A DNA stretch of 13,892 nt from a virus (taxonomy: Duplodnaviria; Heunggongvirae; Uroviricota; Caudoviricetes). Below the pieces are notes generated by a model. It did not search any database and had not been told where the DNA came from. It saw only the letters and a program-made list of their open reading frames with translations. Position 1 is the stretch's first letter, and every line of letters starts with the position of its first letter. The position numbers were made by a program, and so were the translations under genes. This document shows, in pieces, positions 661 through 4,964 of the stretch. The stretch covers positions 1 to 13,892 of the IMG/VR virus record IMGVR_UViG_2802429244_000001; one strand, 5' to 3'.

Positions 661-730
661 CTTGCAAAACATACAGGGCCGCCATGAGCGGCTTTTTTAT
701 TGCTCAAAAAACGAAAGAACGGAGGTACGT

Positions 731-1012
731 ATGTACGCGCTGAAAAAAATCACGGTAACGGAAGATGGGCGCCAGGTTGAAGAAGTGCATGTTCTGGGGA
801 ATATGTATCGCCTGGAATTTTACCCGCGCAACACTCACCTTGCTGCCCAGGTGGAGTATTGCCAGGATGGAAATGTACCATGCATTTCGGTGGAAAAAAC
901 GGATGAGGCCTACATCACCACGCTGGCGGGTGACACGGTTCGTTGTATCTGTCGCGGTGACACTAAAGCCAGGAATGAAATAGCCAGATGCCGCACCCAG
1001 GGCAGTAAATAA
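731..1012 (+). CDS. Hypothetical Cys-rich protein, 93 aa, no predicted TM segment
   Basis: GGAGG at 721-725 five nt upstream of ATG 731; the ORF runs to TAA 1010-1012 and is followed by a strong terminator. Five cysteines in the C-terminal half. The ORF track's longer version from 662 lacks an RBS. Confidence 0.45.
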   Translation: MYALKKITVTEDGRQVEEVHVLGNMYRLEFYPRNTHLAAQVEYCQDGNVPCISVEKTDEAYITTLAGDTVRCICRGDTKARNEIARCRTQGSK

Positions 1013-1021
1013 AAAAACAAA

Positions 1022-1052
1022 ACCCCGGCTGCTGGAACAGTCCGGGGTTTTT
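1022..1052 (+). terminator. Rho-independent terminator closing the lysis cassette
   Basis: GC-rich inverted repeat CCCCGG(1023-1028)/CCGGGG(1042-1047), extendable through CTG/CAG with one bulge, followed by TTTTT 1048-1052; an A-run upstream could allow bidirectional function. Confidence 0.6.
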
Positions 1053-1143
1053 AGTTTTCACGTCAAAGAGGAAATTGTGAGTAGTGAGTACGGAGAAAAT
1101 CCTCGTGGGAAAGTATAAAAGATTCTTTTTGAGGTTGTCCATT

Positions 1144-1257
1144 ATGAAAGGTATTGAAGTGGAAACTCCCGCGAGCCTTGATTTGACAAGGGCTGCGGCC
1201 TTTGCAATTCGCCTTGTGGCGGTCGCTGTTCTGATTTGGGCTGTGCGTTGGTGGTGA
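1144..1257 (+). CDS. Small membrane peptide, 37 aa, single C-terminal TM segment (not in the ORF track because of its length)
   Basis: GAGG at 1131-1134 nine nt upstream of ATG 1144; translation MKGIEVETPASLDLTRAAAFAIRLVAVAVLIWAVRWW; stop TGA 1255-1257 sits one nt before the ATG of the next gene, suggesting translational coupling. Confidence 0.35.
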   Translation: MKGIEVETPASLDLTRAAAFAIRLVAVAVLIWAVRWW

Positions 1258-1258
1258 C

Positions 1259-1441
1259 ATGAGCCGAAAACACTGGACACACAGAATGCCTCGAACGGCG
1301 GTGAAATGGGCGCTGGTAGCGATACTGGTGCCTTTTTTCCTGGTGGGATGTGTCAGCCTGGATAAAGCGCGCCAGCTTTTTGATACAGCTTCTCAGGTCT
1401 GTGAAATTGTCGACGGTGTTCGGCAGTGTCTGCAGAACTGA
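1259..1441 (+). CDS. Small lipoprotein, 60 aa, lipobox LVGC, about 30-residue mature part with three Cys
   Basis: Positively charged N-region, hydrophobic stretch WALVAILVPFFLVG, then Cys (lipobox LVG-C); mature sequence CVSLDKARQLFDTASQVCEIVDGVRQCLQN. Tightly coupled to the upstream small peptide. Confidence 0.5.
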   Translation: MSRKHWTHRMPRTAVKWALVAILVPFFLVGCVSLDKARQLFDTASQVCEIVDGVRQCLQN

Positions 1442-2847: not shown

Positions 2848-4964
2848 TGCCTGTGCAGGCGACCGCCAGATCGTTGAAACTGGATACGGGCCAGTTAATT
2901 AAAGCGCCGCGCAGAATGCCTGTTGCCGAAGCGGTACAAAAATTTATGCGAGTCCCTACATCTGGTGGCAACTCTGTTCCGTGGGATCCGATGGTTGCGC
3001 CGTATGTGATTGAACCCATGAACTGCCTGTCGTCCCGTGAGTTTGATGCGGTTGTTTTTGTTGGCCCTGCCCGTACGGGCAAGACTAACGGCCTGATTGA
3101 TGGCTGGGTGGTTTATAACATTGTCTGCGATCCGTCGGACTTTTTGCTGGTGCAGATGACGCAGGATAAGGCGCAGGAGCACTCCAAAAAGCGCCTGGCA
3201 AGAACATTTCGTTGCAGCCCGGAGGTCAGAAAACGCCTCAGCCCACGCCGTAACGATAACAACGTTCATGACAAATATTTTCTGTCAGGCAGCTTCCTGA
3301 AAATCGGCTGGCCTTCCATCAATGTCATGTCATCCTCTGATTTTAAATGTGTTGCGCTGACTGATTACGACCGATTTCCTGAAGATATCGATGGCGAAGG
3401 TGATGGTTTCTCCCTGGCTTCAAAACGTACCACCACATTTATGTCAGCTGGTATGACGCTGGTGGAGAGTTCCCCTGGACGTGAGATCACAAACAGCAAA
3501 TGGCGCAGAACGTCACCGCATGAAGCCCCGCCCACCACGGGGATCCTTTCTCTGTATAACCGTGGCGATCGTCGTCGCTGGTACTGGCCCTGTCCGGATT
3601 GTGGTGATTATTTTCAGCCATCAATGGAGGCTATGACGGGATATCGTGACAATCCTGATCCTGTAAAAGCCAGTGAAGCGGCTCATATATTGTGTCCGCA
3701 TTGTGGCAGTCAAATCACTGCAGATATGAAACGTGAACTGAATGGTCGCGGCGTCTGGTTGCGTGAAGGTGAGCAGATTGACAGAGAAGGGAATGTAACC
3801 GGAACGCCACGTCATTCAAGGATAGCCAGCTTCTGGATGGAAGGGCCGGCTGCAGCCTATCAGACCTGGGCGCAACTGGTTTACAAACTACTGACTGCTG
3901 AGCAGGAATATGAAGCCACAGGCAGTGAGGAAACGCTGAAGGCGGTGATTAACACCGACTGGGGATTACCTTATTTACCTCGTTCCGCAATGGAGTTGCG
4001 CAGTGCAGATGTTCTGATGCAGCGGGCTGAGGATTACGGTAAGCGCCTGGTACCGCCGAAAGTGCGTTTTCTTATTGCGGCGGTGGACGTGCAGGGCGGG
4101 AAGAACCGACGGTTTGTGGTGCAGATTATTGGTTATGGCGAGGACGGTGAACGCTGGCTGGTGGACCGTTATAACATCCGACAGTCATTGCGCGGCGATG
4201 AAAATGGCGAAGCATTACCTGTGCATCCCGGGGCTTATCCTGAAGACTGGCAGTTGCTGGTCACCGATGTACTGGAGAAAACGTATCCGCTCCAGTCCGA
4301 TCCGGCCCGCAGAATGCCTGTACTGGCAATGGCGGTGGACAGTGGTGGTGAAGACGGGGTGACGGATAACGCCTATAAATTCTGGCGAAAATGTCGTCAG
4401 GATGGACTGGGGCGACGGGTTTTTCTGGTAAAGGGAGACAGCACGAAACGCCAGAAAATTATTACCATCACACACCCGGATAATACCGGGCGAAGCGATC
4501 GCCGTGCGGATGCTCAGGGGAAGGTGCCGGTATATCTCCTGCAGACAGACCTGCTGAAAGATCAACTAAGCAATAACCTGCAACGTGAAATGCCCGGACC
4601 GGGCTACATTCATTTTCCTGACTGGCTCGGGGAGTGGTTTTATGAAGAGTTGACCTATGAGGAACGTGGTGCTGACGGGAAATGGCGCAAGCCGGGAAAA
4701 GGGAATAACGAAGCGTTTGACCTTTTTTGCTATGCCCATGCCGTCGCCATTCTGCGTGGCTATGAAAAAATCCGTGACTGGAGCAACCCTCCCCAGTGGG
4801 CAAGAGGGCAGGGTGCTGACGCGGGGGCTTCGGCAGACAGACGTTCTTCCGACACAGTGGGCAAGAAAAACGTTGCCGGAAGAGATGAGCGGCAAAAAGC
4901 AGCGTCGCCGGAAGCGTTATCCGGAAACTGGTTATCACTACCCCGAAACGGAGGATGGTTGTGA
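2847..4964 (+). CDS. Terminase large subunit, lambda gpA family
   Basis: 705 aa; Walker A-like VGPARTGKT near the N-terminus; Cys-pair segment WPCPDCGDYF...ILCPHCGSQI comparable to the CPHCG region of lambda gpA; synteny small terminase - large terminase - W - portal. Confidence 0.9.
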   Translation: MPVQATARSLKLDTGQLIKAPRRMPVAEAVQKFMRVPTSGGNSVPWDPMVAPYVIEPMNCLSSREFDAVVFVGPARTGKTNGLIDGWVVYNIVCDPSDFLLVQMTQDKAQEHSKKRLARTFRCSPEVRKRLSPRRNDNNVHDKYFLSGSFLKIGWPSINVMSSSDFKCVALTDYDRFPEDIDGEGDGFSLASKRTTTFMSAGMTLVESSPGREITNSKWRRTSPHEAPPTTGILSLYNRGDRRRWYWPCPDCGDYFQPSMEAMTGYRDNPDPVKASEAAHILCPHCGSQITADMKRELNGRGVWLREGEQIDREGNVTGTPRHSRIASFWMEGPAAAYQTWAQLVYKLLTAEQEYEATGSEETLKAVINTDWGLPYLPRSAMELRSADVLMQRAEDYGKRLVPPKVRFLIAAVDVQGGKNRRFVVQIIGYGEDGERWLVDRYNIRQSLRGDENGEALPVHPGAYPEDWQLLVTDVLEKTYPLQSDPARRMPVLAMAVDSGGEDGVTDNAYKFWRKCRQDGLGRRVFLVKGDSTKRQKIITITHPDNTGRSDRRADAQGKVPVYLLQTDLLKDQLSNNLQREMPGPGYIHFPDWLGEWFYEELTYEERGADGKWRKPGKGNNEAFDLFCYAHAVAILRGYEKIRDWSNPPQWARGQGADAGASADRRSSDTVGKKNVAGRDERQKAASPEALSGNWLSLPRNGGWL

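Follow-up and report, generated by a model that had tools for sequence, protein, structure and literature searches.

The stretch of DNA considered here, hereafter the window, is the whole 13,892-nucleotide (nt) IMG/VR virus record IMGVR_UViG_2802429244_000001 (Caudoviricetes), which is the late region of an Escherichia coli lambdoid prophage. Its features run in the order holin, M15 endolysin, hairpin, an open reading frame (ORF) of 93 amino acids (aa), a GC-rich hairpin with a T-run, a membrane peptide ORF, a lipoprotein ORF, a 99-aa ORF, and the Nu1-like and gpA-like terminase genes. The subject of this report is the peptide gene and the lipoprotein gene, which the original prediction, made from the sequence alone, had taken for a functional unit. 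We find that the region is two separable modules and not a pair. On the basis of gene position, conservation, and comparison among loci only, we put at roughly even odds (about 0.5) the reading in which the lipoprotein serves as a lysis factor for the outer-membrane step and would act without a phage inner-membrane partner.

The lipoprotein gene and its family

The peptide and lipoprotein genes are separated by a single nucleotide (C1258). The 37-codon peptide frame described in the original prediction, from ATG 1144 to TGA 1255-1257 (translation MKGIEVETPASLDLTRAAAFAIRLVAVAVLIWAVRWW), is present, with a ribosome-binding site (RBS), GAGG at 1130-1133, 10 nt 5' of its ATG, and the lipoprotein begins at ATG 1259. 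The lipoprotein itself is also as described, with 60 aa, an LVGC lipobox, and a 30-residue mature part that contains cysteines (C31-N60, with C48 and C57); its precursor has a basic n-region, a hydrophobic core, and the lipobox L28-V29-G30-C31. Across 42 distinct nucleotide versions of the gene, the ratio of nonsynonymous to synonymous polymorphism (pN/pS) is 0.17 in the lipoprotein frame, compared with 0.89 and 2.3 in the other two frames, and no version has an internal stop in the lipoprotein frame; constraint is similar over codons 1-9 (0.14) and over the mature part (0.13). The lipoprotein matches phrog_7528 (6.5e-37) and the peptide phrog_4493 (3e-23), both of them PHROG families with no assigned function. 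Both are real genes, more than chance ORFs.

Four residues of the lipoprotein (G30, C31, C48, and C57) are invariant in family members down to 31% identity, and the family Cys spacing is C-x8/9-C; C48 and C57 probably form disulfides. At position +2 of the mature protein, the window lipoprotein has V, and family members have V, A, T, G, S, or E. Because no member has Asp there, the lipoprotein should, by analogy with the Lol +2 rule of E. coli, end up in the outer membrane, on its inner leaflet. The mature part lacks Pro, is amphipathic (hydrophobic moment muH ~0.5), and carries a net charge of -1; it has no hydrophobic segment beyond C31 and, thus, no C-terminal transmembrane (TM) domain. AlphaFold2 models the 60-aa precursor as one continuous helix with a predicted local distance difference test score (pLDDT) of 71, a model that is uninformative about oligomers or disulfides. 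The signal-peptide n-region encoded by codons 1-17 (1259-1309) is unusually long and basic (MSRKHWTHRMPRTAVKW), and distant homologues likewise have long basic n-regions. In colicin lysis proteins, the cleaved signal peptide has been reported to have a role of its own; by analogy, and as speculation, the cleaved signal peptide of the lipoprotein may have one as well.

The profile searches that had been proposed as a check gave no match for either product in Pfam or NCBIfam (threshold E≤1) or in PADLOC, and the only lipoprotein matches in a sequence profile search of the PDB were designed helical-repeat proteins, an artifact of helical composition. A word-indexed protein search returned lipoprotein homologues from Escherichia and Salmonella only, at ≥67% identity. 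An exhaustive hidden Markov model search of 1.84 billion representatives yielded 25 family matches and no tie to any named family, and a species-level genome scan found the lipoprotein in Salmonella, Citrobacter braakii, and Lelliottia only. Judged by these searches, the lipoprotein is a small Enterobacteriaceae prophage family; it includes inducible Shiga-toxin phages. Among complete E. coli genomes, 224 of 5,426 carry the gene, at 318 places and with up to seven copies per genome. It is also found in a record deposited as “Actinobacillus phage vB_Apl-pPE4” (PP818812.1; L185, 20079-20261), whose DNA is 93% identical to an E. coli prophage region and whose lipoprotein is 95% identical. The gene is unannotated in that record, a short minus-strand ORF being annotated right beside it, and the stated Actinobacillus host appears doubtful.

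Position in lysis cassettes

To describe the genomic context of the family, we classified 85 loci carrying the lipoprotein gene by their arrangement. The gene directly follows the endolysin gene, with a gap of 15-18 nt and no peptide, at 37 of the 85 loci (e.g., E. coli W, L005), and a peptide-family gene lies between the two at 43. Four loci have a phiP27-type arrangement, and one contig begins at the lipoprotein gene, with its upstream side unclassifiable. The lipoprotein gene is always the last gene of the lysis cassette, and where it adjoins the endolysin gene, it abuts it, overlaps it, or starts 10-18 nt after its stop. This extends to distant homologues: in L092, a lambda-type holin is followed by a 131-aa M15-like endolysin, and the lipoprotein ATG comes immediately after the endolysin stop; in L091, a GH108 endolysin gene lies 10 nt upstream; in Lelliottia (L096), the two genes overlap, the lipoprotein gene starting before the endolysin gene ends; and in Citrobacter (L095), the gap is 15 nt. 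The proposed check for conservation of the pair beside endolysin genes had a divided outcome, in that the linkage holds for the lipoprotein but is facultative for the peptide.

The cassettes differ in their other components. Three endolysin types occur beside the lipoprotein (M15 of 127 aa, M15-like of 131 aa, and GH108/PG_binding_3), together with two holin set-ups, a pair of 130 aa and 91 aa and the lambda-type PF05106; in every IMG/VR lipoprotein locus with a contig long enough on that side, the 91-aa holin gene precedes the lipoprotein gene. At L031-type loci, which have a GH108 endolysin, the peptide and lipoprotein genes lie between the endolysin gene and bor, which is the place of Rz/Rz1 in lambda. 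Conversely, phages mEp390 and HK639 have a homologous two-holin cassette followed, at the lipoprotein's place, by an annotated pair of inner-membrane and outer-membrane spanins (i-spanin and o-spanin). No Rz/Rz1 was found within ±5 kb of the lipoprotein gene at any of the 85 loci, and among the 75 loci with the 91-aa holin and enough downstream sequence, 71 have the lipoprotein and none has Rz. The window itself has no Rz/Rz1 homologue and no i-spanin-like ORF, which agrees with the remark in the original prediction that a canonical i-spanin/o-spanin pair is missing. The spanin position is taken by the lipoprotein, which never occurs together with Rz/Rz1 and has no spanin homologue alongside. 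No + strand promoter is predicted within 600-2400 of the window, so expression of the lipoprotein should, as far as lambdoid biology can be extended to this prophage, depend on the antiterminated late transcript.

The same junction can hold other genes. In prophages Rac-SA53 (L087, 3416-4556) and SerU-LTIIb (L090, 3603-4752), which share the two-holin cassette, the A and B genes of LT-II toxin come right after a GH108 endolysin gene, and neither the lipoprotein nor Rz/Rz1 occurs in the stretch examined.

Search for an inner-membrane partner

We scanned for i-spanin candidates, defined as ORFs encoding one N-terminal TM helix followed by a charged tail; Rz and the mEp390 i-spanin, the positive controls, are both recovered by this procedure. 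No convincing candidate was found in the window, in L005, L092, or L096, or in the complete genomes of phiP27, phiSTEC1575-Stx2k, and pPE4; tblastn searches of these three genomes with Rz, Rz1, and the mEp390 i-spanin returned no homologue (E>0.3). Two further candidates were rejected. An i-spanin embedded in or overlapping the lipoprotein or endolysin gene would have to lie in frames that are unconstrained and have no TM-bearing ORFs, and the 130-aa “putative holin” has multiple TM segments and no periplasmic coiled coil, and is missing from the lambda-holin loci L092 and L096. Nor did we find any single phage membrane protein that goes with the lipoprotein throughout the two holin and three endolysin set-ups. 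The loci have no holin or endolysin type in common, so no protein of the cassette can be a dedicated partner.

One member of the family has been classified before. In a survey of spanins, phiP27 was listed as having a “separated” two-component spanin (Kongari et al. 2018, BMC Bioinformatics 19:326; PMC6139136, supplementary files 3-5), the o-spanin of which (20706..20861) has a 30-residue, 83% helical mature part and is the shortest two-component spanin in that set (PMC6139136). This o-spanin is a version of the window lipoprotein started at Met10, 95% identical to it. The i-spanin assigned to phiP27 in that survey (20348..20542, a TTG start, 64 aa) has no PHROG match and occurs at four of the 85 loci, all of phiP27 type. 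It lies antisense to a 90-aa ORF (phiP27 20332-20604; L002 2154-2426) that matches phrog_36812 at 5e-20. We reject it as the partner, given its restriction to phiP27-type loci and its position antisense to a better-supported ORF, and consider the published phiP27 spanin call to be probably wrong. The survey itself noted that distant or noncanonical i-spanins would escape its criteria, that ~13% of the phages surveyed had no spanin, and that 31 genomes had a lipoprotein but no i-spanin (Kongari et al. 2018; PMC6139136). The family is better described as a case of this last kind, a lipoprotein without a linked i-spanin, which that study left open. In the literature on orphan o-spanins, phiP27 lysis, and small RNAs upstream of Rz, we found nothing on this lipoprotein gene.

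The membrane peptide as a separate module

The peptide ORF is open from GTG 1084 (57 aa), with further possible starts at GTG 1105 (50 aa) and ATG 1144 (37 aa). Divergent paralogues have an ATG at the position of residue 8 of the 57-aa form and align from there, so the product is probably the 50-aa form starting at GTG 1105, with GGAG at 1092-1095 as its RBS. Of the original description of the peptide, the C-terminal TM helix, therefore, stands, but the length of 37 aa probably does not. Hydropathy peaks at 2.45 over residues 38-54 of the 57-aa form, consistent with a single TM helix, which is preceded by a basic N-terminus and followed by RWW only. The predicted topology is N-in, tail-anchored in the inner membrane, with about three residues in the periplasm, and this topology rules the peptide out as an i-spanin.

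Several observations separate the peptide from the lipoprotein. The peptide is missing from 37 of the 85 lipoprotein loci, where the lipoprotein is still 92%-98% identical; the functional unit that the original prediction had proposed is not supported, and absence of the 37-aa ORF from otherwise near-identical prophages is the very finding that it had named as contrary to its proposal. The peptide family, which has the core AFAIRLVAVAVLIWAVRWW and the pattern AFAIR[LI]VA[VI]AVL[IV]WA[VI]RWW, gives products of 28-57 aa depending on variant and start codon, and many of its members precede Rz. The 28-aa type has Rz exactly 1 nt downstream in all of the best 80 IMG/VR loci (80/80), and in O157-type prophages (L178-L183; peptide 3001-3114, Rz 3116-3583), Rz is preceded, at a distance of 1 nt, by a 37-aa form that is 86% identical to the window peptide. 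DNA homology between the Rz-type and lipoprotein-type contexts stops 8 nt into the downstream gene, so that the 3' end of the peptide gene marks the junction at which Rz/Rz1 and the lipoprotein are exchanged. The peptide gene is facultative and occurs independently of the lipoprotein.

The 86%-identical 37-aa form is indexed in 2,585 blocks of the contig collection, with host E. coli genomes of 5.3 Mb, and the peptide gene is a very common, unstudied gene of the lysis regions of Shiga-toxin (Stx)/O157-type prophages. Some lambdoid prophages have two or three genes for small single-TM peptides (phrog_1115, phrog_4906, and phrog_4493) in tandem after the endolysin gene (L042, 4662-4996; L003, 1713-2061). 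These tandem genes precede the outer-membrane lysis gene, be it Rz or the lipoprotein.

A second element is associated with the peptide gene. Wherever the peptide has the long N-terminus (86 loci, 27 distinct segments, among them the O157 type and a 45%-identical paralogue), a minus-strand promoter is predicted at the identical register, with 9-10 of 12 consensus matches. Variants of it stay promoter-like (TGGACA, TAGTCA, or TTGTCA for one hexamer; TATACT or TATAAT for the other). Transcription from it is predicted to begin right at the GTG 1105 codon of the peptide and would meet a bidirectional terminator 55-65 nt farther on. The predicted antisense RNA of ~95 nt would cover the peptide RBS and start codon and end at the bidirectional hairpin, an arrangement that resembles type I toxin-antitoxin or cis-antisense control. 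A search of the whole window against Rfam gave nothing at the gathering threshold; the sub-threshold matches were terminator-shaped only, at ~950-1300 and in L179.

Neighboring features

The features of the lysis region are listed in Table 1. The 93-aa ORF is found at only 13 of the 85 lipoprotein loci, between the endolysin and peptide genes and with one terminator-like hairpin on each side; it looks like an inserted accessory gene and lies outside the lysis function. The hairpin at 1021..1052 looks like a terminator on both strands. The original prediction had placed the peptide and lipoprotein genes downstream of a terminator, which is right, but had taken this terminator to close the endolysin unit; the hairpin (1021-1049) instead closes the inserted 93-aa ORF. 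Farther downstream, between the 99-aa ORF and the Nu1-like terminase gene, ~430 bp (1913-2349) contain no convincing ORF and begin with a GC hairpin (~1922-1947) followed by AT-rich sequence; this stretch is probably the cos region.

Table 1. Features of the lysis region, in window coordinates
Feature	Position	Strand	Basis and details
Holin, 91 aa	5..280	+	Pfam Phage_holin_3_7 2.2e-21; phrog_217 holin
M15 endolysin, 127 aa	277..660	+	Pfam Peptidase_M15_4 2.9e-12; phrog_465 endolysin 1e-75
Terminator-like hairpin 3' of endolysin gene	675..695	+	Hairpin prediction
Cys-rich ORF, 93 aa, apparently inserted	731..1012	+	phrog_33497 (function not assigned) 1e-51
Predicted antisense RNA, ~95 nt	1011..1105	-	Fold dG -32.4, z -5.3
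GC-rich hairpin AACCCCGG...CCGGGGTT, A-run 5', T-run 3'	1021..1052 (stem 1021-1049)	both	Sequence, partial terminator calls, minus-strand fold
Small membrane peptide, probably 50 aa	1105..1257	+	phrog_4493; TM core ~1192-1245; C-terminal RWW
Sigma-70-like promoter, TGGACA, 18 nt, TATACT	1112..1141	-	Promoter prediction; 10/12 matches
Prolipoprotein, 60 aa	1259..1441	+	phrog_7528; signal peptide 1259-1348; lipobox LVGC 1340-1351
Lipoprotein mature part	1349-1438	+	Family alignments; lipidated Cys 1349-1351; invariant Cys codons 1400-1402, 1427-1429

Interpretation

The reading that we prefer is that the lipoprotein, encoded by the terminal gene of the lysis cassette, is the positional replacement of Rz/Rz1. 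It would be made from the Q-antiterminated late transcript along with the holin and endolysin, processed by Sec/Lsp, and would destabilize or breach the outer membrane after the endolysin has removed the murein, with no dedicated phage inner-membrane partner. The mechanism could be a permeabilization like that caused by colicin lysis proteins, or the amphipathic helix could insert into the inner membrane after the murein has been removed. The peptide would be an accessory or regulated membrane peptide, encoded 1 nt 5' of either outer-membrane lysis gene, Rz or the lipoprotein. The outer-membrane localization of the lipoprotein, its disulfides, and its outer-membrane-disrupting activity are what we infer.

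A number of considerations weigh against assigning this role to the lipoprotein. All of the evidence is positional and comparative, and our i-spanin scanner is crude. Four of the 75 holin/M15 loci do not have the lipoprotein, the two of these that were inspected having other genes after the endolysin gene, and the post-endolysin slot can also be filled by cargo: Rac-SA53 and SerU-LTIIb have LT-II toxin genes there, and the window has the 93-aa ORF. Lambda Rz1 alone does not work, and we know of no stand-alone lipoprotein that has been demonstrated to disrupt the outer membrane. Further, the mature lipoprotein is near neutral, unlike the cationic disruptin of phiKT. Finally, phages with defective spanins can still release progeny when sheared, and a missing spanin is, therefore, no proof of a replacement.

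The rival explanations differ in what they ask of the lipoprotein. It could be a true o-spanin, and a very short two-component spanin, whose inner-membrane partner (a phage protein encoded elsewhere or a host protein) has escaped recognition. The lipobox, the absence of Asp at +2, the periplasmic Cys residues that the family conserves, and the place in the lysis cassette would all fit, as would the filing of phiP27 as a separated two-component spanin and the acknowledgment in that survey that its criteria would miss distant or noncanonical i-spanins (Kongari et al.; PMC6139136). However, the candidate i-spanin of phiP27 has the weaknesses described above, no phage membrane protein is shared across cassettes, the three complete genomes gave no convincing candidate, and 30 mature residues cannot reach across an intact periplasm; we consider this explanation unlikely. 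The version of it implied by the original prediction, a noncanonical two-component spanin with the peptide as a type I i-spanin (C-terminal TM domain), draws on the adjacency of the two genes with their 1-nt spacer, and a protein with a C-terminal TM domain could in principle be an i-spanin (Kongari et al.; PMC6139136). This version is close to refuted, given that the peptide is absent from so many lipoprotein loci and that its family also precedes complete Rz/Rz1 in O157-type prophages. Moreover, with RWW only beyond the TM helix, some 3 + 30 residues do not span the periplasm; the N-terminal 35 residues of the 57-aa form include six Lys/Arg and no signal peptide, which makes an N-out orientation unlikely; and the 28-aa variants are essentially a bare TM helix.

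Alternatively, the lipoprotein might have nothing to do with lysis and be an accessory product, either a receptor-masking or exclusion factor like Cor/Llp (which the original prediction had also suggested) or a surface factor like Bor, encoded at a permissive insertion site. The phage lipoproteins Cor, Llp, and Bor are small and contain Cys, and the post-endolysin site does take cargo, including, besides the toxin genes and the 93-aa ORF, a KilA-N gene in pPE4. We regard this as improbable, since the lipoprotein gene has no promoter of its own and a gap of 0-18 nt to the endolysin gene (at 37 of the 85 loci and in distant homologues), from which it follows that it should be expressed late only. 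In addition, it and Rz/Rz1 exclude each other, neither Pfam nor PADLOC gives a match for it, and it moves with the lysis cassette across at least three unrelated morphogenesis modules: lambda-like (the window and L184/phiSTEC1575-Stx2k), myovirus (phiP27), and ParB/Terminase_2 (strains C5 and W). A receptor-specific factor should instead track the tail genes, and this spread argues against a Cor/Llp role. The tight coupling to endolysin genes could also mean that the lipoprotein modulates lysis, through its timing, periplasmic control of the endolysin, or envelope stress, rather than executing a step of it, and additional small lysis factors are known, such as Lcc6 in LambdaSo. With three unrelated endolysin types and two holin types, however, a specific protein target in the cassette is unlikely, and the lipoprotein replaces the spanin pair and is not added to it; we hold a modulating role to be quite improbable. 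For the peptide taken by itself, it is possible, if doubtful, that it is a type I toxin-like protein whose translation is held down by the ~95-nt cis-antisense RNA and which damages the membrane, or sets the time of lysis, once late transcription overwhelms that RNA. This is the part of the toxin-like cassette envisaged in the original prediction that retains some support, from the conserved antisense promoter over the translation start. The promoter is shared by all 86 loci, the predicted RNA would start at GTG 1105 and cover the RBS with a bidirectional terminator beyond, the peptide is hydrophobic with a single TM segment, and a prophage type I toxin system, hokW-sokW, is reported to aid phage release (PMC8621323). 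On the other hand, the promoter hexamers overlap codons (for K-Y-K and L-S-I), and a constraint on the protein may be what conserves them; classical type I toxins have their own + strand promoter, and the peptide does not; the 28-aa PhiR5_1-type variant does not have the minus-strand promoter; no Rfam or Pfam/NCBIfam toxin family (Hok, Ldr, Ibs, TisB, and others) is matched; and the antisense RNA is a prediction only.

A bolder form of the stand-alone reading, which we put forward tentatively and would sooner bet against than for, is that a 30-residue, disulfide-containing, amphipathic outer-membrane lipopeptide would by itself suffice for the last step of lysis. This would make it a third class of disruptor after spanins and disruptin, serving Stx2e and Stx2k phages as well as prophages of ~4% of complete E. 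coli genomes, with the upstream peptide and antisense RNA forming a separate timing or toxin module common to Rz-type cassettes.

Comparison with known systems

How phages without recognizable spanins pass the outer membrane is an acknowledged open question, which this lipoprotein family addresses as a tractable E. coli case with a minimal cassette of holin, endolysin, and one 60-aa lipoprotein. If the stand-alone reading is true, breaching of the outer membrane needs no complex that spans both membranes, and the lipoprotein would be a very small, genetically encoded, outer-membrane-permeabilizing lipopeptide. The lipoprotein is not categorically new, having been listed earlier as a predicted o-spanin. 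The phiP27 “separated” spanin belongs to the same protein family, and its assignment by Kongari et al., which was bioinformatic only, is one that our analysis would correct. What is new here is the family-wide absence of an i-spanin, the exchange with Rz/Rz1 at a defined junction, and the recognition that the peptide is a module of its own, widespread and with a probable antisense regulator.

Lambda Rz1 and other o-spanins resemble the lipoprotein in being small outer-membrane lipoproteins with conserved periplasmic Cys, encoded at the end of the lysis cassette and interchanged at the same junction. However, the window lipoprotein has no sequence similarity to Rz1 (no Pfam Rz1 match), is predicted to be helical and contains no Pro where Rz1 has 10, and is encoded neither within nor beside an i-spanin gene. 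Of the features of two-component spanins, it has the lipobox, the +2 residue, and the cassette location, but not an i-spanin, the reach across the periplasm, or homology to Rz/Rz1. The unimolecular spanin gp11 of phage T1 is likewise a single lysis-cassette gene product with an N-terminal lipobox that replaces a two-component spanin; with no C-terminal TM domain and a mature part of 30 residues, the gp11 type of anchoring in two membranes is impossible for the window lipoprotein. Cor/Llp-type lipoproteins differ in that the window lipoprotein is linked to the lysis cassette, and not to the tail module, and has no promoter of its own. On the peptide side, the phrog_4493, phrog_1115, and phrog_3246 peptides of O157- and Stx-type prophages have the same core and the same 1-nt junction, and the window peptide is a member of this group; the difference is that Rz lies downstream there and the lipoprotein does so in the window.

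For a stand-alone mechanism, two further systems can be compared. The phiKT protein gp28, or “disruptin,” is a small single non-spanin protein proposed to disrupt the outer membrane in a spanin-less phage (bioRxiv 10.1101/515445), although it is a cationic antimicrobial peptide and the window lipoprotein is near neutral. The nearest functional analogy is probably offered by the colicin lysis proteins, or bacteriocin release proteins (Pfam Lysis_col), which are prolipoproteins of ~45-60 aa that have a lipobox of LxGC type and mature into lipopeptides of ~28-30 residues; the window lipoprotein agrees with them in size and lipobox. Colicin lysis proteins permeabilize the envelope without a partner. 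The window lipoprotein differs from them in having no match to the Pfam family (E≤1), in the helical mature part with two Cys, and in being encoded in a phage late operon rather than in an SOS-controlled colicin operon.

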